Shown here piece by piece: positions 10,431 through 32,655 of a stretch of 64,000 nucleotides of DNA (its first letter is position 1; every line of letters begins with the position of its first letter). Where the stretch lies: assembly GCA_018434325.1 (NCBI GenBank), contig JAHDPO010000007.1:266210-330209 (forward strand), given 5' to 3'. The translations under genes and the position numbers were made by a program. The stretch is from Clostridia bacterium (GTDB lineage: Bacteria; Bacillota; Peptococcia; DRI-13; UBA5745). Below the pieces are notes generated by a model. The model had not been told where the DNA came from. It made no database searches and worked only from the letters and a program-made list of their open reading frames with translations.

Positions 10431-11873
10431 CTACCCTTTACTGACAGTTTTGTCAATTTTAAAATAAAGATCAGCCTGCTTCTTATCTGTCTTGATTTTG
10501 GAAATCTGCACAACCGTACGGGTTAGGGCAAACAAAGCAAGAGCGTTGGGGAGAACCATCAGGTTGTTGAACATGTCGGTCAGCTCCCACACCAGATCGT
10601 TAGACATGAGAGTTCCGGCAAAAATAAAGACTAAAGCAATGGCCGAGTATACAGCAGACGCCTTTTTTCCAAAGAGATAGATTACGTTGATTTTGCCGAA
10701 CAAATTCCAGCCCAGTACGGTGGAGAATGCAAAAAAGAACAAACAAACAGCTACAAATATAGCGCCCGGCCCTTCACCCAAAACAGTTCCAAAGGCAGTT
10801 TGGGCCAGATTGGCTTTATTGACGCCTTCCGGAATCACACCGCTGGCCAGAATACCGTCGCTGGTGTACAGGGTGGAGATGACCACCAAGGCGTTTAAGG
10901 TCAGCACCACAAAGGTATCGATAAACACACCTATCATCGCCACAACACCCTGATCATGGGGATTTTGCACGTTGGCCTGGGCATGAGCATGAGGGGTAGA
11001 GCCCATACCGGCCTCGTTGGAAAAAAGTCCCCGCTTAGCCCCTTGGCTGACGGCAGTTTTCAGCGCATAACCAAAGCTGCCGCCAATGATCGCCTGGGGT
11101 TGAAAAGCATAGCGGAAGATCATGCCAAAGGTGGCCGGAAGATACTGTATACGGATGATCAAAACAGCCAGGCCCCCCAGCAAGAACACAGCAGCCATAA
11201 GGGGTACAAGCTTTTCTGTAACAGCAGCCAGCCGCTGGACACCGCCCAGAAAGATAATGCCGCAAATAACAACAAGTATAACGCCAATTATCCAGGCTGG
11301 AAGGCCAAATGCGGTTTCAAAGGTGGCGCCTATGGAATTGGATTGCACCATGCATCCCATAAAACCCAAGGCCAAAATAATAGCAAAGGCAAAGAAGCTG
11401 GCAAGGAATTTGCCGAAAGCTCCCTGAAATGCGGTGGTGATGTAATAGACCGGTCCGCCATGGATAGTGCCGTCTTGATCGGTGATACGGGTCTTTACTG
11501 CCAAGGTTGCCTCGGCATAGATGGTTGCCATTCCCAGAAAAGCAATGATCCACATCCAGAAAATAGCGCCGGGCCCGCCGGTTAAAATAGCTCCTGAAGC
11601 ACCCACGATATTGCCGGTACCCACCTGGGCAGCGATGGCCGTGGTCAGTGCTTGAAAAGAGCTCATACCGCTTGTCTGCTTGCCTCCGCGCAATGAGAGA
11701 TTGCCGAATACTTTCTTCATCCCCTCGCCAAAGCAGCGAATTTGGACAAAACGAGTGGCAACAGTGTACCACAGACCTACCGCAACCAATAAAAAAACCA
11801 AAACATAGCTGGATAAGTAGGTATTGATGGCCGCCACCAAGGGGTAAAGGACTGCTTCTAACTGCTGTAACAT
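10431..11873 (-). CDS. Sodium:alanine/glycine symporter (AGCS family)
   Basis: 11 TM; FQALTTAIAAQVGTGNIVGASGAI motif. True start is MLQQLEAV (comp. ATG 11871-11873) with SD GGAGAG upstream. The track start 11951 runs into the riboswitch terminator. Confidence 0.85.
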   Translation of the reverse strand: MLQQLEAVLYPLVAAINTYLSSYVLVFLLVAVGLWYTVATRFVQIRCFGEGMKKVFGNLSLRGGKQTSGMSSFQALTTAIAAQVGTGNIVGASGAILTGGPGAIFWMWIIAFLGMATIYAEATLAVKTRITDQDGTIHGGPVYYITTAFQGAFGKFLASFFAFAIILALGFMGCMVQSNSIGATFETAFGLPAWIIGVILVVICGIIFLGGVQRLAAVTEKLVPLMAAVFLLGGLAVLIIRIQYLPATFGMIFRYAFQPQAIIGGSFGYALKTAVSQGAKRGLFSNEAGMGSTPHAHAQANVQNPHDQGVVAMIGVFIDTFVVLTLNALVVISTLYTSDGILASGVIPEGVNKANLAQTAFGTVLGEGPGAIFVAVCLFFFAFSTVLGWNLFGKINVIYLFGKKASAVYSAIALVFIFAGTLMSNDLVWELTDMFNNLMVLPNALALFALTRTVVQISKIKTDKKQADLYFKIDKTVSKG

Positions 11874-11895
11874 AATTTTTCTCTCTCCTTTGGAC

Positions 11896-12165
11896 AAAAA
11901 AATAGATCGTGGAGAGAGCCACGATCCGGTGAAAACAGCAGAAGCATCCACCGGATACGTAATTCTACGCAGTCCGGCGGAGCGGTTTCACCTCTGTCCT
12001 TTTGCCTGAGAGATTAACGGAATTACATTCCGTGTTGCACCTTCGGCCCTCGCAATCGAGCTTCTCCAGAGTCACATCTGTGCACAGTCTTCATCCCTTG
12101 AGGGACACCTGAGAGTTTTACTCCTTCGGCAAACCGGATATGGTTACTTTCCTGCGCACTTCATC
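11896..12165 (-). ncRNA. Glycine riboswitch (tandem aptamers) with intrinsic-terminator expression platform
   Basis: Minus-strand reading gives aptamer 1 (...CCGAAGGAGUAA...CUCUCAGGUG...) and aptamer 2 (CUCUGGAGAAG...GCCGAAGGUGCAAC...CUCUCAGGCAAAAGGACAGAG, fwd 11991-12071). A terminator follows: stem GATCGTGG/CCACGATC at 11905-11926 plus U7. It lies immediately 5' of the AGCS symporter. Confidence 0.75.
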
Positions 12166-12214: not shown

Positions 12215-14107
12215 TCAAATTAGAGCATCAGCCGCTACAGGCTTAATCAGCGTTTTTTCCTTTGCAATGCTTAATGCCCTCATAGCATTGAGAATAGCCA
12301 GGACAGACACGCCCACATCGGCAAATACCGCGGCCCACATGCTGGCCATGCCCATAGCTCCCAGTATTAAAACCAGGCCCTTGACGCCTAAAGCAAATAC
12401 TGTGTTTTGTTTGGCGATGCCGATGGTCTTGCGGGCGACGGCAATGGCTGCGGCCAACTTTGAGGGCTCGTCGTTCATGATCACTACGTCGGCGGCCTCA
12501 ATAGCCGCGTCACTGCCCAAGGCTCCCATGGCGACGCCCACATCGGCCCGAGCCAATACCGGAGCGTCGTTGATGCCGTCACCGACGAAAACCAGCTTGC
12601 CCTTAGGGGATTTCTCCGCCATCAAAAGCTCCAGCTTGTCGACTTTATCCGCCGGCAAAAGCTGGGTAAAGACCTGGCCGATACCCAATTGTGCCGCCAC
12701 CTTTTTGCCGATGACGTCATTATCGCCGGTGAGCATCACTGTTTTTTTGATACCGCAGGCCTTCAGGCCGGCGATAGCTGCCGCCGCATCTTCTTTAATC
12801 TGATCCTCGATCAGAATGTACCCGGCATAAGCCCCCTGTTTAGCGACGTGAACTAAAGTGCCGACAGGACCTTCCGGCAGCCGGACGCCGGCTTTCTCCT
12901 CCATTAATTTATGGTTGCCGATGTAAACGGTGCTGCCGTCGATTTCCGCTTCTATGCCATAGCCCGGAATTTCCTGGACTTGACCGATTCTCGTCAAATC
13001 AGGCTCTTTACCATAAGCCCGGCGCAGAGACTGGGAAATCGGATGGGTGGAATAGCTTTCGCCCAAGGCCGCCAGCTCCAGCAATTGATCTGCCGGCATG
13101 GCCGCCGGCACAATTTCCGCCACATCAAAGCTGCCCTTCGTCAAAGTGCCTGTTTTATCAAAAACCACAATTTCAGCAGCGGCCAAGGCTTCCAAATAAT
13201 TGCCGCCCTTCACCAGCACGCCCTGCCGGGAGGAGCCGCCCAAGCCGCCGAAGAAGCTTAAGGGAATGGAGATCACCAAAGCACAGGGACAGGAGATAAC
13301 CAAAAAGGTCAGAGCCCGATAGACCCAGTCACTGAATTGAGCCCCGGCAATCACCAGGGGAGGCAGTACCGCCAGGCAGGCGGCAACGATAACCACCGCC
13401 GGCGTATAGTACCTGGCAAAACGGGTGATAAAGCTTTCCATATTGGCCTTTTTGCTGCTGGCATTCTCCACCAGGTCCAATATCCTGGCTACGGTGGATT
13501 GCTCAAACTCTTTGCTTACCTGCATCAGCAGCGTACCGTTTAAGTTGATGCAGCCGCTGAAAATTTCATTGCCCGGCAAGGCTTCCCGGGGCACGGATTC
13601 GCCGGTGAGGGCCGAGGTATCTAAAGTGGAATTACCTTCGGTGATCACTCCGTCCAAAGGCACCCGCTCACCGGGCTTGATCAAAATAATTTCTCCCACC
13701 TGCACCTCTTCCGGGTCAACCTCGATCCATTGCTCCTCCCTCATGATATTGGCATGATCCGGCCGGATATCCATCAAATCGGCAATGGATTTTCTCGATT
13801 TGCTGACCGCCACGGACTGGAAGAGCTCTCCCACCTGGTAAAACAGCATAACGGCAATGCCTTCCCGGTATTCCCCCAAGGCCAGGGCTCCAATAGTAGC
13901 AATAGTCATCAGGAAGTTTTCATCAAAAACCTGGCCCCTTCTGATGTTGCCGGCAGCCCTGAGCAGCACGTCGCCGCCGGCAATCAAATAACTGACCAGA
14001 TAGACGGCGATGAGGATCATTTCATCCGCCGGCAGCAGGATGCCGAGGACATACAGCGCCGCGGCGGCCAGAATTTTATATAGCTGTTTCTTTTGTTTCT
14101 TTGTCAT
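12215..14107 (-). CDS. Heavy-metal P1B-type ATPase, Zn/Cd/Pb type (CadA/ZntA-like), without N-terminal HMA domain
   Basis: TGES, SCPCALVISIP (CPC), DKTGTLT, GDGINDAP. TM8-region FADVGVSVLAILNAMR (Asp typical of Zn/Cd pumps). Confidence 0.85.
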   Translation of the reverse strand: MTKKQKKQLYKILAAAALYVLGILLPADEMILIAVYLVSYLIAGGDVLLRAAGNIRRGQVFDENFLMTIATIGALALGEYREGIAVMLFYQVGELFQSVAVSKSRKSIADLMDIRPDHANIMREEQWIEVDPEEVQVGEIILIKPGERVPLDGVITEGNSTLDTSALTGESVPREALPGNEIFSGCINLNGTLLMQVSKEFEQSTVARILDLVENASSKKANMESFITRFARYYTPAVVIVAACLAVLPPLVIAGAQFSDWVYRALTFLVISCPCALVISIPLSFFGGLGGSSRQGVLVKGGNYLEALAAAEIVVFDKTGTLTKGSFDVAEIVPAAMPADQLLELAALGESYSTHPISQSLRRAYGKEPDLTRIGQVQEIPGYGIEAEIDGSTVYIGNHKLMEEKAGVRLPEGPVGTLVHVAKQGAYAGYILIEDQIKEDAAAAIAGLKACGIKKTVMLTGDNDVIGKKVAAQLGIGQVFTQLLPADKVDKLELLMAEKSPKGKLVFVGDGINDAPVLARADVGVAMGALGSDAAIEAADVVIMNDEPSKLAAAIAVARKTIGIAKQNTVFALGVKGLVLILGAMGMASMWAAVFADVGVSVLAILNAMRALSIAKEKTLIKPVAADALI

Positions 14108-15646: not shown

Positions 15647-16645
15647 ATGATGAAGAAAATAAACAGAATTTTGGGGTTGCTTTTGGCATTGATGCTGTTG
15701 GCAGGCAGCCTGGCGGGATGCGCCCCCTCACAGCAAGCAAAAACCTTGACCTTTGCCGATGTGGGCTGGGATTCGATCCTGTTCCATAACGCAGTAGCGG
15801 GAACGGTTGCCGAGACCGTATTCGGCTACCAATGGTCAGAAGTATCCGGCAGTACGCCTATCACCCATGAAGCGGTGAAAAAAGGCGAGATTGACGTCCA
15901 TATGGAAGTGTGGACCGATAACCTTGCCAACTATAAAGATGATATTGAGGCAGGAGCCTTAAAAGAAGTGAGCATCAATTTTGACGACAATGCCCAGGGA
16001 CTTTATGTGCCCCGCTATGTGATCGAAGGCGATGCCGGGCGGGGCATTGAGCCCATGGCGCCCAATCTGAAAACGGTGGCGGATCTGAAAGATTATGCCT
16101 CTCTCTTCAAGGATCCCGAGGATTCCTCCAAGGGCATTATTTACGGCGGCATCGCAGGCTGGGCGATCACCGAAATCATCCACAAGAAGTATCTCCACTA
16201 CGGCCTGGATGCAAACTACAATTACATGGAGCCGGGTACCGATGCGGCCACCAGCGCCGTACTGGTAGCGGCCTACGACAGAGGTGAGCCGGTGGTGGCC
16301 TATTATTGGGAGCCTACCTGGCTGTTGGGCAAATACGACTTCGTCCTTCTTGAGGATGAGCCCTACGACCCGGAGCTATATTTTGAGGGTAAGACCGAGT
16401 GTCCCTCCGTCCGTGTAGCAGTCTGCACCAGCAACGATTTTTACGAAAAGGACCCGGAATTCGTGGCCTTTCTGTCCAAATACCGCACCTCCTCTGCCCT
16501 GACCAGCCAGGCCCTTGCCTATATAGAGGATACCGGCGCCGACTATAAAACGGCGGCCCGATGGTTTTTAAAGGAAAACCGGGATATGGTTGAAACCTGG
16601 CTTACAACAGAGCAGGCAGACAAACTATATGCGGCGATTGAATAG
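15647..16645 (+). CDS. Glycine betaine ABC transporter substrate-binding lipoprotein (OpuAC/ProX-like)
   Basis: Lipoprotein signal LLAGSLAGC; OpuAC fold motifs DVGWDSI, EVWTDN. Confidence 0.85.
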   Translation: MMKKINRILGLLLALMLLAGSLAGCAPSQQAKTLTFADVGWDSILFHNAVAGTVAETVFGYQWSEVSGSTPITHEAVKKGEIDVHMEVWTDNLANYKDDIEAGALKEVSINFDDNAQGLYVPRYVIEGDAGRGIEPMAPNLKTVADLKDYASLFKDPEDSSKGIIYGGIAGWAITEIIHKKYLHYGLDANYNYMEPGTDAATSAVLVAAYDRGEPVVAYYWEPTWLLGKYDFVLLEDEPYDPELYFEGKTECPSVRVAVCTSNDFYEKDPEFVAFLSKYRTSSALTSQALAYIEDTGADYKTAARWFLKENRDMVETWLTTEQADKLYAAIE

Positions 16646-16653
16646 GTGAGATT

Positions 16654-17526
16654 ATGAATTGGCTATTTGATTTTCCTTTTATCATCAGGATAAATACGAA
16701 TGCCATCGACAGGGCGGTGCGCTCCTTTGCCGCCGACCACGCCGCCTTCTTCGACGGAATCAAGGCAGGCCTTACCAATTTTGTGGGGGCCATCAACTGG
16801 CTGCTTAACCACATTCCTTGGTTTGTGTTGGTAGTCCTGGTGTTTTTCCTGGGCTGGAAAGGCCATAAACGGCTTCGTTCCGGCATTGCTTACAGCATCC
16901 TGCTCTGCATTATCGGTATGCTGGGCTTATGGGGCCTGATGAATTTGACCCTTTCCATTGTATTGGCCGGCGTAACCATTGCGCTGCTGCTGGGCTTACC
17001 CGTGGGCGTGCTGCTCTCCGGCTCCGACCGGGCCAATCAGGCGGCCCGGCCGGTGTTGGATATGATGCAAACCATGCCGGTTTTCGTTTATTTGATTCCT
17101 GCGGTGATCTTCTTTGGCATGGGCTCGGCCTCCGCCGTTATTGCAACCGTTATATATGCTATGGTGCCGGTTGTCCGCCTGACCAGCCTGGGAATCCGGC
17201 AGGTGGACGCCGAAGTGGTGGAAGCGGCCCGTTCTTTTGGTTCGACAAAATCCCAGATGCTGTTTAAGGTTCAGGTGCCTCAGGCACTGCCCACGATTAT
17301 GGCCGGCATCAATCAAACGCTGATGATGGCCATGTCCATGGTGGTTACCTGCTCGATGATCGGCGCCCGGGGACTTGGCAATGAAGTGCTCATCGCAGTA
17401 AACCGGATTGAAATATCCCGGGGATTTATGGCCGGCAGCTCGGTGGTTATTCTGGCCATTCTTCTTGACCGCCTGACTCAAGGCTGGTTTTCGGGACGCA
17501 AGAATGCGGGGGATGAACAACAATGA
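16654..17526 (+). CDS. Glycine betaine ABC transporter permease (OpuAB-like)
   Basis: BPD-transport (EAA loop region) permease, 6 TM. Confidence 0.85.
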   Translation: MNWLFDFPFIIRINTNAIDRAVRSFAADHAAFFDGIKAGLTNFVGAINWLLNHIPWFVLVVLVFFLGWKGHKRLRSGIAYSILLCIIGMLGLWGLMNLTLSIVLAGVTIALLLGLPVGVLLSGSDRANQAARPVLDMMQTMPVFVYLIPAVIFFGMGSASAVIATVIYAMVPVVRLTSLGIRQVDAEVVEAARSFGSTKSQMLFKVQVPQALPTIMAGINQTLMMAMSMVVTCSMIGARGLGNEVLIAVNRIEISRGFMAGSSVVILAILLDRLTQGWFSGRKNAGDEQQ

Positions 17527-18698
17527 GCGAAATCATTATTGAAACAAAAAATGTATCGAAGCTATATGGCGTACGCCGCGATGAAGCGGCAGAGCTGCTG
17601 CGGGGGGGCGCCGAAAAGAGCGAGGTATTGAAAAAAACCGGGGTAACCACTGCCTTGTATGATGTAAGCTTGCGAATCCCCCGGGGCAAGATCTTTGTGA
17701 TCATCGGCTTGTCCGGCTCAGGAAAGTCAACGATGGTTCGCTGCTTTAACCGCTTAAACCGTCCTACCTGGGGCTCAATTATATTTGACGGCGTCGATCT
17801 GCTGAAGCTCTCCAATCAGGAGCTGCTGGAATTCAGGCGGCGCAAGGTGTCCATGGTCTTTCAGTCCTTTGGCCTGATGAGTCACCGCAATGTTCTGGGC
17901 AATGTGGCTTATGGACTGGAGGTCTCCGGCATGGGCCGTGAAGAGCGGGAAAAGCGGGCCAGAGAGTCCATTGCCCTCGTAGGACTGGAAGGCTGGGAAG
18001 ATGCCATGATCGGCAACCTGTCCGGCGGTATGCGCCAGCGGGTGGGCCTGGCCCGGGCTTTAGCAAACGACCCGGAAGTGCTTCTGATGGATGAGCCTTT
18101 TTCCGCACTGGACCCATTGGTGCGCAATGATATGCAGTTTGAGCTGCTCTCCATTCAGCGCAAGCTGGGCAAAACCGTGATTTTCATTACCCATGACATT
18201 GACGAGGCCTTCCGTCTTGGCGATACCGTTGCCATCATGCGGGACGGGCGCCTGATCCAGGTAGACACGCCCGAGGGCATGAGCACAAACCCGGCGGACG
18301 AATACGTACGGCGCTTTATTAACTCCGCCGATAAGTCAAAGGTTTTATCGGTGCGCAATATTATGATCACGCCGGTGAGCCTGATTAAGCCCGGCGACGG
18401 TATCGACCATGCCCTCCGGGTGATGCGCAAGAACGAACTGTCTTCCGTTTATGCCGTGGACGGTCAAATGAAGCTAAAAGGTATCCTTACCCTGGCGGAC
18501 GCCATGCGGGCCAAACGGGAAAGCCTGGATCTTTCCGAGATGATTGTGAAGGATATTCCCTCAACCTCTCCCGACGCTTCCGTGGAAGAGATTATACCCC
18601 TGGCAGCCGAATCCTCTTATCCCTTGGCGGTTTTAGACAATGAGGGCCGCCTACAGGGAATCGTAACAAAGGCAAGCGTTTTATCTTCATTAATATAA
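17523..18698 (+). CDS. Glycine betaine ABC transporter ATP-binding protein with C-terminal tandem CBS domains (OpuAA-like)
   Basis: Walker A GLSGSGKST, LSGGMRQRV, Walker B LLMDEPFSALD; CBS pair at C-terminus. Confidence 0.9.
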   Translation: MSEIIIETKNVSKLYGVRRDEAAELLRGGAEKSEVLKKTGVTTALYDVSLRIPRGKIFVIIGLSGSGKSTMVRCFNRLNRPTWGSIIFDGVDLLKLSNQELLEFRRRKVSMVFQSFGLMSHRNVLGNVAYGLEVSGMGREEREKRARESIALVGLEGWEDAMIGNLSGGMRQRVGLARALANDPEVLLMDEPFSALDPLVRNDMQFELLSIQRKLGKTVIFITHDIDEAFRLGDTVAIMRDGRLIQVDTPEGMSTNPADEYVRRFINSADKSKVLSVRNIMITPVSLIKPGDGIDHALRVMRKNELSSVYAVDGQMKLKGILTLADAMRAKRESLDLSEMIVKDIPSTSPDASVEEIIPLAAESSYPLAVLDNEGRLQGIVTKASVLSSLI

Positions 18699-18703
18699 AA
18701 TAA

Positions 18704-18840
18704 TACTATTCTGCGATTAAAATAGCATATATGCCAATCTGCGTGGGCAAAGCCCACTATAGCTATTTATGTGGGCTTGCCCACTGCCGCACTCTGTGCG
18801 GCAAATGAAAAACTAAAGGTTTTTCATTGCAGATTAGTAT
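18704..18840. repeat. MITE-like dispersed repeat, copy 1 (12-bp terminal inverted repeats ATACTATTCTGC / GCAGATTAGTAT, internal hairpins)
   Basis: Left end ATACTATTCTGCGATTAAAATA and right end GCAGATTAGTAT are shared with 32459-32543. Termini are mutually reverse-complementary (11/12). The interior carries hairpins GTGGGCAAAGCCCAC, GTGGGCTTGCCCAC, GCCGCACTCTGTGCGGC and AATGAAAAACTAAAGGTTTTTCATT. Confidence 0.55.
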
Positions 18841-18857
18841 AAGCGCGCTTTTTGCCA

Positions 18858-18895
18858 TAAAAAAATCTACCGGCATAGTCGGTAGATTTTTTTAT
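18858..18895. terminator. Bidirectional intrinsic terminator (opuA-like operon and the ArsR gene converge here)
   Basis: A6-AAATCTACCG-gcatagt-CGGTAGATTT-T7. Confidence 0.7.
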
Positions 18896-18916
18896 GGCAA
18901 AAAGCCGGCGGACTTT

Positions 18917-19793: not shown

Positions 19794-22484
<2,691 letters not shown>

Positions 22485-26527: not shown

Positions 26528-27466
26528 CTATTTGGCAATCAGGCCTTTTTCCTGCAGGAATTCTTTAATCACCACATTGACGTCCTTGCCTTCCACGTCT
26601 ACGGCATAGGTCAGATCCGTCATGACTTCACTGGGGAAAAGGCCGCCCAGCTTATTCAGCACTTCTTCCAGATTGGGAGCCACTTCCTTCATCTCTTCAA
26701 ACAGAGCTTCCCGCACTAAAACGGCGCCATTATACTCCGGGAAGAAGCCCTTGTCGTCGACCAGTGTTTTCATGTTGGACTTGCGGTTGAGGCCGTCGGT
26801 GGCATAAACGACGGTCACATCAATATTGCCGCTATCTACCGCCGAATACTTAAGACCGATATCGATTTGCTTCGCTTCTTTAAAGTTCAGACCGTAAAAC
26901 TCCGTCAAGGGGTTAAACTTGGCGCTGCCTTCCTCAGTGAAGAAATCATGCTCGGCCCCAAAGACCAGCTCACCTGCCACCTGGGCCAGATCGCTGACGG
27001 TTTCCATCTTGTACTTCTCATAAACTGCCGGAGCTACGCCTAAAACATAGGTATTATTGAGGCCCAGCTTATCCAGCAGCCTAACTCCCTCATCCTTGGC
27101 CTCTTCGTTGACAAAATCATAGAGATTCTTCCCCTCCGGTACATCCGAGGGATCCAAATGCAAGAATGTGGTGAGGAGAGTGCCGTCGTAGCTGTTCATC
27201 AAATCGGCGTCTCCTTTGATAATAGTATTGTAACTATTGACGGGAGCCATTTCTTCCCTGATCTCCACTTTGGCGTCTGTGTGCTCTTCAACCAGCAGCT
27301 TAACCGCCCTGTGCACCAGCCACATTTCGGAAAACTGTCCATCGTAGATGATGATCGTATCCTTTTTGCCGCCGGCTTGAGGAGCAGATCCTCCACAGCC
27401 GGCCAGCATAAGCAGCATCGCTGCACATAAGCATACCGACAGCCATTTCATCATGTTCTTCTTCAT
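26528..27466 (-). CDS. Osmoprotectant (choline/carnitine/glycine betaine) ABC transporter substrate-binding lipoprotein (OpuCC/OpuBC-like)
   Basis: Lipobox LMLAGCGGS; OpuAC-superfamily fold. Confidence 0.8.
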   Translation of the reverse strand: MKKNMMKWLSVCLCAAMLLMLAGCGGSAPQAGGKKDTIIIYDGQFSEMWLVHRAVKLLVEEHTDAKVEIREEMAPVNSYNTIIKGDADLMNSYDGTLLTTFLHLDPSDVPEGKNLYDFVNEEAKDEGVRLLDKLGLNNTYVLGVAPAVYEKYKMETVSDLAQVAGELVFGAEHDFFTEEGSAKFNPLTEFYGLNFKEAKQIDIGLKYSAVDSGNIDVTVVYATDGLNRKSNMKTLVDDKGFFPEYNGAVLVREALFEEMKEVAPNLEEVLNKLGGLFPSEVMTDLTYAVDVEGKDVNVVIKEFLQEKGLIAK

Positions 27467-27492
27467 CGTATCCCTTCCTTTCCTGTTGATAT

Positions 27493-28101
27493 TTATATGG
27501 TTTTGCGGGGGGAAAAACGGCGATATAGGCGCTTTTCAATGTGAGACATTATACCGTCGCAGCCCACCGCCATTACCATCAACGCTAACGTGCCGGACAT
27601 GATCATCGTCATGTTGGAAACCCGGATACCCCGATAAATCAAACTGCCCAAGCCGCCGCCGCCTACGAAAGTGGCAAACACCGCCGTACCAACCGAGGTA
27701 ACGGCAGCAATTCTGATGCCCGTAAAAATCAGCGGAAAAGCAATAGGCATCTCCACATGCCACAGGCGGTACAGCTTCGTCATGCCCATGCCCTGAGCCA
27801 CCTCTTTGATGGCCGGATCCACTTCGCTTAAGCCCACGTAAGTATTTTGTACCACCGGCAGCAGCGAATAAAGCAGCAGGCCGATGACCACCGTAGCCTT
27901 GCCGGCTCCCAGGAAAACCATGATAATGCCCAAAAGCGCCAGGGCCGGCATAGTTTGCAGCACCTCTACAACCCAGAGAATGATCTTGCGGACGCTTTTG
28001 TAAAAATAGGCCAGAATGCCCAAAGGCACACCGATAATAATCGTCAAGGCCACAGCTGCCAGCACCAGATAAAGGTGGCTCATAATCATGTCGAGGGTCA
28101 T
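27493..28101 (-). CDS. ABC transporter permease (OpuCD/OpuBD-like)
   Basis: BPD_transp_1, 5-6 TM. Confidence 0.8.
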   Translation of the reverse strand: MTLDMIMSHLYLVLAAVALTIIIGVPLGILAYFYKSVRKIILWVVEVLQTMPALALLGIIMVFLGAGKATVVIGLLLYSLLPVVQNTYVGLSEVDPAIKEVAQGMGMTKLYRLWHVEMPIAFPLIFTGIRIAAVTSVGTAVFATFVGGGGLGSLIYRGIRVSNMTMIMSGTLALMVMAVGCDGIMSHIEKRLYRRFSPRKTI

Positions 28102-28736
28102 TTGCTGTCCCTCCTTAATTGCTTCGGAATCAGGGCCTTGCGCAAAAAATCGATGGCCAGACTAAAAAGCAAGGCCATGATCGCCGCCGGTATGGCGCCG
28201 GCAATGATCAAAGCGTTGTTGTTGCTGGAGACGCCGGCATAGATCAGCTCGCCCAAGCCCCCCAAGCCGATCATGGCTGCCAGCACGGCCCAGCTTACGG
28301 TGTATACGGTAGATATCCGCAAGCCTGTAATAATAGAAGGAAGGGCCAGGGGCACTTCCACCTTCATTAAAATCTGGAAAGGCGACATGCCGCAACCTCT
28401 GGCGGCCTCTTTGAAGTTTTCGGAAACATTAATAATGCCTACATAAGTGTTTTTTAATATAGGGAATATGGCATAAATAGTCAGAGCGATAACCACCGTA
28501 GAGGGGACCATACCATTATAGAGAAAAAGCAGGCCGATAAAAACGATGCCGGGGATTGTCTGAAAAACCGATATAACCGGCAGGATAAGATTAGCGCGCT
28601 TAGGCATCCGGGAAAGCAAAATTCCTAAAATAAAAGCGATAACAAAAGCAAAGACCACGGAAACGACCACGTACCAAAAGTGAGTAACGATGGCCGAAGA
28701 TAACCGTTTGCCATAAAGAGCTAAAAAATGGCTCAT
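28098..28736 (-). CDS. ABC transporter permease (OpuCB/OpuBB-like)
   Basis: BPD_transp_1; 4-bp overlaps with its neighbours. Confidence 0.8.
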   Translation of the reverse strand: MSHFLALYGKRLSSAIVTHFWYVVVSVVFAFVIAFILGILLSRMPKRANLILPVISVFQTIPGIVFIGLLFLYNGMVPSTVVIALTIYAIFPILKNTYVGIINVSENFKEAARGCGMSPFQILMKVEVPLALPSIITGLRISTVYTVSWAVLAAMIGLGGLGELIYAGVSSNNNALIIAGAIPAAIMALLFSLAIDFLRKALIPKQLRRDSK

Positions 28737-29854
28737 TGGCTATCCCCCCAGACGGCATCCGCCAGGGATTTAGCCATACTGGTCTTCGTGACGATGCCGG
28801 CAATGGTTCCGTCGTGATTCAGCACCACAACGTAACTATCCTGGCCATTGAGCAGCTTATCGAAACAAATCTGAGCATCCTCATCCACGTAAGATACCGC
28901 ATTTTCCTGGGTGATCAAGGGTTCGATGGTTTTTAAATCCTTGCCGTGATTACGGATGCTTTTGATGGATACCGTGCCGGCATAGGTATCATCAAGGTTC
29001 TTGACCAGCAGGGTATCGACTTTGCGCCGGGCCATCTGCTGAATGGCTTCCCGTACACCCCGGTTGCGATAGCAACTGTAAATATCCGACCGCATAAAAT
29101 CAGCAGCCGTCTGAGGCAAAGCCTCTTGATCTTTTGAGTGCTTGCCCATGAAGCTGCGAATCAAATCGTCGGCGGGATTTTCCAGCATCTCTTCCGGTGC
29201 GGCTATCTGGACAATCTTACCCTTATTCATGAAGATGATTTTGTCGGCCATATTAAGGGCCTCATCCATATCATGGGTCACAAAAACAATGGTTTTGTTT
29301 AATTTTTTTTGGAGCTTGCTGACTTCATCCTGGAGGATGCGGCGGGTCATGGGATCCAAAGCGCCAAAAGGCTCATCCATCAGCACGATAGGCGGTGACG
29401 CGGCTAATGCCCGCAGCACCCCGATCCGCTGCTGCTGGCCGCCGGACATTTCGGAAGGATACTTATGCGCATATTCTTCATAGGGCATATCAACCAAGGC
29501 CAGAAGCTCCCGAACAATCTTATTGCATCTGGCCTTTTCATAATTCAAAAGTTTGGGCACCACAGAAATATTCTGCTCCACCGTCATGTTGGGAAACAAG
29601 CCGATCTGCTGAATAACATACCCGATAGATCGCCGCAGCTTGACCTTATCGATCTGCGAGATATCCTGATCATCAATGAATATCTTCCCCTTGTCCGGCT
29701 CGATCAAACGGTTGATCGTCTTAAGGGTGGTCGTCTTGCCGCAGCCGCTGGGCCCTATCAAGACGGTAAATTCTCCGGTGGCAATCTCCAGATTCAAGTC
29801 GTCCAAAATCAGAGACTCCCCATATCTTTTGCTTACATGTTCAAAACGTATCAT
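28733..29854 (-). CDS. Osmoprotectant ABC transporter ATP-binding protein with tandem CBS domains (OpuCA-like)
   Basis: GPSGCGKTT, SGGQQQRIGVLRA, LMDEPFGALD; C-terminal CBS pair. Confidence 0.9.
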   Translation of the reverse strand: MIRFEHVSKRYGESLILDDLNLEIATGEFTVLIGPSGCGKTTTLKTINRLIEPDKGKIFIDDQDISQIDKVKLRRSIGYVIQQIGLFPNMTVEQNISVVPKLLNYEKARCNKIVRELLALVDMPYEEYAHKYPSEMSGGQQQRIGVLRALAASPPIVLMDEPFGALDPMTRRILQDEVSKLQKKLNKTIVFVTHDMDEALNMADKIIFMNKGKIVQIAAPEEMLENPADDLIRSFMGKHSKDQEALPQTAADFMRSDIYSCYRNRGVREAIQQMARRKVDTLLVKNLDDTYAGTVSIKSIRNHGKDLKTIEPLITQENAVSYVDEDAQICFDKLLNGQDSYVVVLNHDGTIAGIVTKTSMAKSLADAVWGDSQ

Positions 29855-32444: not shown

Positions 32445-32458
32445 GGCTTTTCCTCCTT

Positions 32459-32543
32459 ATACTATTCTGCGATTAAAATATGGAATATTTTAATCTGGCA
32501 ATTCTTGATTGCCACTGCGCCCGGGGCGCAGGCAGATTAGTAT
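32459..32543. repeat. MITE-like dispersed repeat, copy 2 (same termini as 18704-18840, shorter core)
   Basis: ATACTATTCTGCGATTAAAATA...GCAGATTAGTAT. Internal hairpin CTGCGCCCGGGGCGCAG. Lies 14 nt upstream of the SPFH gene start codon and downstream of the HD-GYP stop. Confidence 0.55.
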
Positions 32544-32655
32544 TATCCTAAACCAATTATATGTTTTTCGCCGCTCAGGCGCAATAAGAAAGGGCCTCAA
32601 AAAGGCCCTTTCCGGTATAATATAATCAAATCTTAATCCGGCTTTAATTTTTCAT

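Follow-up and report, generated by a model that had tools for sequence, protein, structure and literature searches.

Two copies of a probable TAA/TTA-targeting MITE family with a hairpin-filled interior in a Clostridia genome

Two short intergenic repeats and their surroundings

Two copies of a short repeat are found in the window, by which we mean the whole 64-kb stretch of DNA analysed here, and both are intergenic. Copy 1 lies behind opuAA (17523–18698, with ABC_tran and CBS domains), the third gene of an opuAC-permease-opuAA operon, between the opuAA stop codon (18696–18698) and a terminator, as stated in the preliminary description. Its core starts 5 nt past this stop, and the TAA that borders the core on the left starts 2 nt past it. 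The terminator downstream of copy 1 is a 28-bp perfect palindrome (GCTTTTTGCCATAAAAAAATCTACCGG ... CCGGTAGATTTTTTTATGGCAAAAAGC, 18848–18905), bidirectional and common to opuAA and the convergent arsR gene. Copy 2 is on the strand opposite to that of its neighbours, an HD-domain gene and an SPFH/zinc-ribbon gene (minus strand), and stops, on the upstream side, 1 nt short of the Shine-Dalgarno sequence of the latter. The upstream region of the SPFH gene (32546–32585, minus strand), which has columns invariant in three species, includes a TATAAT box (ACATATAATTGG) immediately upstream of where copy 2 is inserted; this region is context and lies outside the element, and the box is presumably the promoter of the SPFH gene.

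Some further features of these two locations were recorded. The right arm of the terminator palindrome differs in the sister strain (L041) at five consecutive bases (GGTTT vs ATGGC), and hence the version found in the window is a block change that perfects the palindrome. This change (18893–18897) looks like a template-switch (quasipalindrome) mutation. A relative with a 93% identical OpuAA has an ordinary and quite different terminator at the same position. Inside copy 2, a weak sigma-70-like match (32487–32515, minus strand; GTGGCA-17-TAAAAT, 9 of 12 positions) is directed to the SPFH gene and would, if active, be an element-borne promoter; the count of such matches in the region was not above that in shuffles. 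Elsewhere in the window, a glycine riboswitch aptamer (RF00504, 57.9 bits; 11984–12079, minus strand) lies directly upstream of a gene of the sodium:alanine symporter family (10431–11951, minus strand), and there are paralogous gene sets within 20 kb (12521–12598 and 20349–20426; 15647–18698 and 26528–29854). Two P-type ATPases, one of which has HMA domains and is beside arsR and csoR-like regulators, share a 78-nt stretch with 79% identity, and two OpuA-type glycine-betaine ABC transporter operons are present on opposite strands.

The 22-mer at the left end of the repeat, ATACTATTCTGCGATTAAAATA, has exactly two matches in the window, at 18703–18724 and 32459–32480, for an expected count of 0.02, and at least two matches were obtained in 0 of 100 shuffles. 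The right end, GCAGATTAGTAT, was also found twice, at 18829–18840 and 32532–32543, where it closes both elements, and its reverse complement equals the left terminus at 11 of 12 positions. Both shared ends, and the relationship of one to the other, had been noticed from the outset. The similarity between the left parts of the two copies reaches 39 nt (82% identity).

Alignment and nhmmer searches place the core of copy 1, which is 136 bp and internally deleted, at 18704–18839 (plus strand). It is flanked by TAA at 18701–18703 and by the same trinucleotide at 18840–18842. The left terminal inverted repeat (TACTATTCTGCGATTAAAAT, 18704–18723) is identical in all copies found, and the right one (18820–18839, minus strand; reverse complement TACTAATCTGCAATGAAAAA) has 1 mismatch in 19 nt to the terminal-repeat pattern. 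Copy 1 had earlier been given a start at 18704, one base inside the 22-mer used to define it, which starts at 18703; given a duplication of 3 bp, this is nevertheless the true first base of the core. The core of copy 2 (32460–32542, plus strand, 83 bp) was delimited by alignment, by nhmmer and by its absence from a relative, L035, and the alignment with the empty site there places the flanking TTA trinucleotides (TAA on the gene strand) at 32457–32459 and 32543–32545. Searches of the 64-kb window with mismatched versions of the terminal-repeat pattern and with an nhmmer profile found no third copy.

Full-length copies, derivatives and distribution

The first 20 nt of the element, used for an exact scan, matched at 12 loci in species-representative genomes, at 10 loci in metagenomes and at none in viral contigs. 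Once duplicates and chance matches in coding sequences were dropped, 17 independent insertions were left, spread over at least 8 MAGs or metagenomes; four of them are in a single MAG (OH_PDB_132) and two in the window. The matches dropped include L003/L017 (Mariniphaga) and L013, where the 20-mer occurs by chance inside coding sequence. The hosts are Clostridia, Oscillospiraceae and Bacillota MAGs, and the metagenomes are of the digester type. The copies are thus dispersed over unrelated loci in several genomes; a count of copies was one of the checks suggested in the preliminary description. By the exact 20-mer there are 2–4 copies per genome, a number that exact matching undercounts and that is low and atypical for a burst-amplified MITE.

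Most copies are 164–169 bp long and have one architecture, with a left terminus (TACTATTCTGC), seven hairpins (H1–H7) that follow back to back, and a right terminus (GCAGATTAGTA). The inverted repeat is lengthened by one arm each of H1 (5') and H7 (3'), so that the full element has terminal inverted repeats of about 20 bp (TACTATTCTGCGATTAAAA ... TTTTAATTGCAGATTAGTA; in degenerate form, TACTAWTCTGCRATTAAAA), and not of 12 bp as first described from the two copies in the window. When TACTATTCTGCGATTAAAA is compared to the reverse complement of the right end (TACTAATCTGCAATTAAAA), 17 of 19 positions agree in most copies. Core sizes in the family range from 40 to 170 bp, and the interior consists of hairpins only, with no transposase gene and no coding capacity. 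Copies from one genome share 93–96% identity, but only 80–92% with those of other, unrelated genomes, which fits amplification within a lineage.

Compared to these full-length copies, both copies in the window are internal-deletion derivatives of an element of approximately 166 bp that have retained both termini. In copy 1, the left terminal repeat is followed by a remnant that joins the 5' half of H1 with the 3' part of H4, then by H5 in duplicate, by H6 and H7, and lastly by the right terminal repeat, and the alignment of copy 1 to full-length copies has a gap over H1 (3')-H2-H3. Its hairpins, identified from the minimum-free-energy fold and from the homologous hairpins in the alignment, are H5a (18743–18757), H5b (18771–18784), H6 (18785–18803) and H7 (18804–18828), all on the plus strand. 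It was recovered by nhmmer with E = 4e-20 and shares 91% identity with L006/L012 over 130 aligned nt. Copy 2 (nhmmer E = 9e-23; 93% identity to the left half of L002) consists of the left terminal repeat, H1 (32471–32495), H2 (32496–32514), H3 (32515–32531) and the right terminus GCAGATTAGTA (32532–32542), as aligned on the plus strand, and H4–H7 are deleted. A deletion between two GCAGA repeats, one opening H4 and the other in the terminus, would account for the passage from H3 to the right terminus. The proposal of a MITE-like family, first made from these two copies, is supported by dispersed relatives, a duplicated target and an empty site, but the two are not themselves full elements, which have seven hairpins in about 166 bp.

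Shorter forms occur elsewhere too. A 43-nt mini copy (L016, 5128–5170) retains only part of H1 between its left and right termini and has intact TAA duplications, and a degenerate remnant of about 50 nt (L007, 5173–5229) lies behind a GH109-like gene. In a second subfamily, the same 20-bp termini, flanked by TTA, enclose an unrelated, GC-rich and hairpin-filled interior of 164–194 bp (L005, 436–631; L015, 4312–4483 and 11807–11972; L020, 157–328). The termini that the subfamilies share imply that a single transposase acts on two or more non-autonomous families.

The elements also coincide with the ends of contigs. The Logan short-k assemblies of the organism represented by the window that include the opuAA or the SPFH gene (L023–L028, L030–L034 and L042) all end inside an element, in copy 1 after about 48 nt and in copy 2 within the loop of H1, and only the NCBI MAG assemblies cross the elements. 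The elements thus fragment de Bruijn assemblies. The breaks were considered as a sign of high copy number and judged ambiguous; copy number, strain variants or a hairpin-related loss of coverage may be their cause.

Target-site duplication and empty sites

With the element core read as TACT...AGTA, the trinucleotide to the left is TAA at 12 and TTA at 5 of the 17 sites. The right flank is identical to the left at 12 of the 17 and matches it at two of three bases at 4 more, and in every case the left and right flanks agree in being of the TAA or of the TTA type. As this state covaries on both sides, the pattern points to a duplicated target of 3 bp, TWA. A search for a duplication of TA or TAT had been suggested earlier, and though a duplication is indeed present it is neither of these but 3 bp of TAA or TTA. 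A TA duplication of the IS630 type was rejected because the extra A/T would have to switch sides between copies.

The site of copy 2 is precisely empty in L035, a metagenomic relative with an SPFH protein 86% identical to that encoded in the window, and the flanks are conserved on both sides (TTTAGGATAAGGAGG; GGATAAGGAGG; with a wider flank, ...TTTAGGATAAGGAGGAAAAGCCATG). On the gene strand, the window reads ...TTTAGGA-TAA-(83 nt)-TAA-GGAGGAAAAGCCATG where L035 reads GGA-TAA-GGAGG, and what is missing from L035 is the whole 83 nt together with one TAA. A third relative (67% identity) is also without the element at this site. Copy 1 is absent downstream of opuAA in relatives with OpuAA proteins that are 93, 90 and 87% identical, where the spacers have diverged and give no exact boundaries, and L035 thus provides the one exact empty site. 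In the sister strain (GCA_018436295.1, approximately 99% identity), both copies are present with 1–3 SNPs. An empty site in a related strain had been proposed as a check of the insertion, and it was found; the alternative picture, of two copies only in a conserved untranslated region with no insertion polymorphism, is not what these genomes contain.

In six or seven cases, the insertion point coincides exactly with the TAA stop of a long ORF. The left TAA is the stop codon of ORFs of 144–467 codons in L004, L005, L006/L012, L009 and L016, or of 95–467 codons if L008, a probable further case, is counted; in L016 it is the 43-nt mini copy that is placed on the stop codon, that of the 467-codon ORF. 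In one of the L015 copies (L015b), it is the right flank that serves as stop codon, for an ORF of 402 codons on the opposite strand. As an insertion into a TAA stop regenerates the stop, such sites are tolerated, which explains why copy 1 is pressed against the opuAA stop.

These flanks also bear on whether the element could be a palindromic element that moves as single-stranded DNA by means of a Y1/HUH transposase, of the REP/REPIN-RAYT type or the IS200/IS605 'PATE' type. The enzyme would recognize H1 and H7 and insert the element 3' of a TAA, and the second TAA would simply be the end of the element. H1 and H7 are similar subterminal hairpins, each 11 nt from an end, the interior is composed entirely of hairpins, and their conservation, which shows no strand bias (see below), fits a role at the DNA level. 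However, the termini are symmetric, with true inverted repeats of 20 bp, and TAA and TTA switch jointly on both sides at a fixed orientation of the element, which fits a duplicated target. No TnpA/RAYT-like gene adjoins any copy. The ends of IS200/IS605 elements are asymmetric and are not terminal inverted repeats, and REP units are single hairpins of 20–40 nt that depend on RAYT and have neither terminal inverted repeats nor a target duplication. REP, BIME and REPIN sequences do resemble the family in being extragenic palindromes, in some cases in hairpin clusters and often in the space from a stop codon to a terminator or from one cistron to the next, but in the family the terminal repeats are clear, the target is duplicated and one site is precisely empty. 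The marks of an element derived from REP/REPIN or IS200/IS605, namely asymmetric ends that lack terminal repeats, no duplication and a Y1 partner, were not found, and we regard this origin as very unlikely.

Conserved hairpins, relationships and source of mobility

The hairpins of copy 1, which include a perfect 10-bp stem (AATGAAAAAC/GTTTTTCATT) recorded in the preliminary description, are real, with a fold z of -14.3 for copy 1 together with its terminator and of -4.5 for copy 2. In the predicted RNA folds, each copy pairs within itself, with the Shine-Dalgarno sequence of the SPFH gene left unpaired and the opuAA terminator intact. In an eight-helix model of 12 full-length copies, 93.8% of cells are paired and both sides have changed, in a compensatory manner, in 15 of 65 pairs, values that were reached in 0 of 500 column shuffles, and slid controls were 33–41% paired. 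The hairpins are thus maintained, mostly H2, H3, H5, H6 and H7, and the compensatory conservation of seven hairpins exceeds what simple decay of a transposon predicts. An alternative fold with two four-way junctions instead of one eight-helix rosette is also available. G·U pairs (15) and A·C mismatches (17) are about equal in number, with no strand bias. As G·U is not above A·C and the elements occur in both orientations to transcription, the constraint is not tied to a single RNA strand, and its level may be that of DNA or that of RNA in either orientation; templated 'quasipalindrome' mutation, rather than selection, may also account for the pairing.

A structured RNA whose ends pair had been put forward as the alternative to a mobile element. 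On such a reading the repeat would be a conserved cis-regulatory or independent RNA in a leader or 3' untranslated region, and the very stable multi-helix folds, the covariation and the orientation of most copies, which is that of the flanking genes, are what it would predict. The genes next to the copies, which include those for isocitrate dehydrogenase, CbiD, a corrin methylase, a pyridoxal-type kinase, a flavoprotein, TsaE, a Clp protease and a SEC-C protein, opuAA and the SPFH gene, are unrelated housekeeping genes, which argues against an RNA specific to a gene class. Copies are found in 5' and 3' untranslated regions and in operon spacers, in both orientations, and the precise absence at the orthologous site, the target-site duplications and the lack of a bias for G·U over A·C are further points against an RNA. 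At gathering score, Rfam 15 matched the element neither in the window, where its one match was the glycine riboswitch, nor at five loci that have full-length copies, and when matches to L022 were ranked by E-value the element was overlapped only by a chance ALIL pseudoknot (E = 0.64, 17 bits, with a gathering score of 50). There is no doubt that the element is co-transcribed and folds, but this is not its primary identity, and the RNA reading is largely refuted, with only a minimal chance left to it.

The main reading is therefore that the repeat is a non-coding MITE family of approximately 166 bp that is mobilized in trans and targets TWA, with deletion derivatives as the two copies in the window, and we put its probability at roughly 0.87. 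MITEs are defined by their size, terminal repeats, target duplication and the absence of a transposase (PMC11602168, PMC3184786). Using thresholds of about 50–800 bp for size, at least 10–15 bp for terminal inverted repeats and 2–10 bp for the duplication, the family agrees with this definition in each respect, and it is also dispersed and variably present, with no transposase inside. Like prokaryotic MITEs generally, it is small (83–169 bp), intergenic and polymorphic between relatives, and it has deletion derivatives and subfamilies that share terminal repeats only; it is unlike them in its low observed copy number per genome and its unusually regular chain of seven palindromes.

No autonomous insertion sequence with the same terminal repeats was detected among the 22 exact 20-mer matches, the fetched loci, plasmids or phages, and blastn against plasmids and phages gave no match. 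Pfam searches found no transposase among 50 ORFs of the window and no transposase domain in the ORFs tested that flank copies. Several ORFs of 399–404 aa that end exactly at the start of an element were considered as a TnpB/omega-RNA or transposase partner and rejected, as they match isocitrate dehydrogenase, CbiD and a GH109-like oxidoreductase in Pfam. The TWA duplication is diagnostic of PIF/Harbinger elements and Tourist MITEs, whose DDE transposases are related to those of bacterial IS5, though the bacterial IS5 target is given as ANT (PMC4482050). The family shares this duplication with the IS5/PIF-Harbinger (PHIS) superfamily, and our best guess is that the parent element is related to IS5/PIF-Harbinger; PIF/Harbinger and Tourist elements are eukaryotic, and the likeness to the family lies in the length and sequence of the duplication alone.

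A transposase acting in trans would cut TWA (TAA or TTA) with a 3-bp stagger, leaving a duplicated TAA or TTA on each side of the new copy. Since TAA doubles as a stop codon that is regenerated, copies at gene ends, in operon spacers and in untranslated regions would be tolerated, and an element that folds on itself would leave an adjacent Shine-Dalgarno sequence or terminator free. Deletions removed H1 (3')-H3 from copy 1 and H4–H7 from copy 2. The analysis shows the dispersal, the terminal repeats, the duplicated target, an empty site, the deletion derivatives and the compensatory conservation of the hairpins; we infer a DDE-type mechanism, as we do the reason for the upkeep of the hairpins and any effect on expression.

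Among the systems compared, the nearest functional analogue is bcr1, an element of about 155 bp from the Bacillus cereus group (Group A bcr repeats), which has short flanking direct repeats and a non-conserved genomic distribution, is co-transcribed, and preserves a cruciform-like structure through compensatory changes (PMC3184786). Though bcr1 is also a Firmicute element and of similar size, it has 5-bp direct repeats and two stem-loops, whereas the elements described here have a 3-bp TWA duplication, terminal repeats of 20 bp and seven hairpins; there is no apparent sequence relationship, and the two are set apart on the basis of description. In Correia elements the duplicated target is TA, and IHF sites and promoters are present. 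Like the RUP and BOX elements of pneumococcus, Correia/NEMIS elements of Neisseria are small, have terminal inverted repeats, are found beside genes and are co-transcribed, and their hairpins can affect mRNA processing; BOX elements are modular, with a variable number of units (PMC3184786, PMC2229807). The family has no sequence similarity to any of these and a different target.

One reading of what maintains the hairpins adds to the MITE reading and does not replace it. The array may be under selection for a function of the host or of the element, as an mRNA stabilizer or insulator in polycistronic transcripts (like REP or bcr1), as a DNA cruciform, or as a protein-binding scaffold that unites the terminal repeats. 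The pairing statistics, the self-contained folds that keep the Shine-Dalgarno sequence and the terminator free, the presence of elements within operons without T-tracts, and the same phenomenon in bcr1 (PMC3184786) all speak for such selection. However, neither the ratio of G·U to A·C nor the orientation to genes, which is of both kinds (W1 vs W2/L002), favours a transcribed strand, derivatives that lack three or four hairpins persist, and template-switch mutation, of which the block change at 18893–18897 is a likely example, can re-perfect palindromes with no selection at all. A selected function is unlikely, though far from negligible.

A bolder version starts from H4, which reads as a degenerate right end, TATA and a left end (GCAGAATGGCA-TATA-TACTAATCTGC), a layout that suggests an origin by fusion of two shorter elements. 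According to this version, the family would be a bacterial counterpart of the Tourist/Harbinger MITEs at TWA, the 166-bp form would be a fusion of two sub-elements of about 80 bp, and the palindromes would be actively maintained because they are needed for transposition or for harmless residence in operons. Taken as a whole, this is speculative and decidedly unlikely. Palindromes that serve transposition could do so by joining both terminal repeats or by presenting hairpin DNA, and if either transposition or operon residence needs them, the family would be a model for structure-dependent persistence of MITEs and for stop-codon-targeted insertion.

The repeat is real but, on the MITE reading, fairly ordinary selfish DNA, and it would represent a new kind of biology only if the hairpin array proves functional. 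In practical terms, the elements break short-k assemblies, are useful as strain markers, and may be mistaken for riboswitch-like RNAs in comparative screens. A full-text literature search for the terminus sequences returned unrelated primers only, and no description of the family was found in the sources searched. The analysis adds a probable MITE family to the poorly studied, uncultured Oscillospiraceae and Clostridia of digesters and guts. It is a clean bacterial case of the TWA duplication that is typical of Harbinger and Tourist elements, and it shows how an element that targets TAA can land harmlessly on stop codons and in operon spacers.
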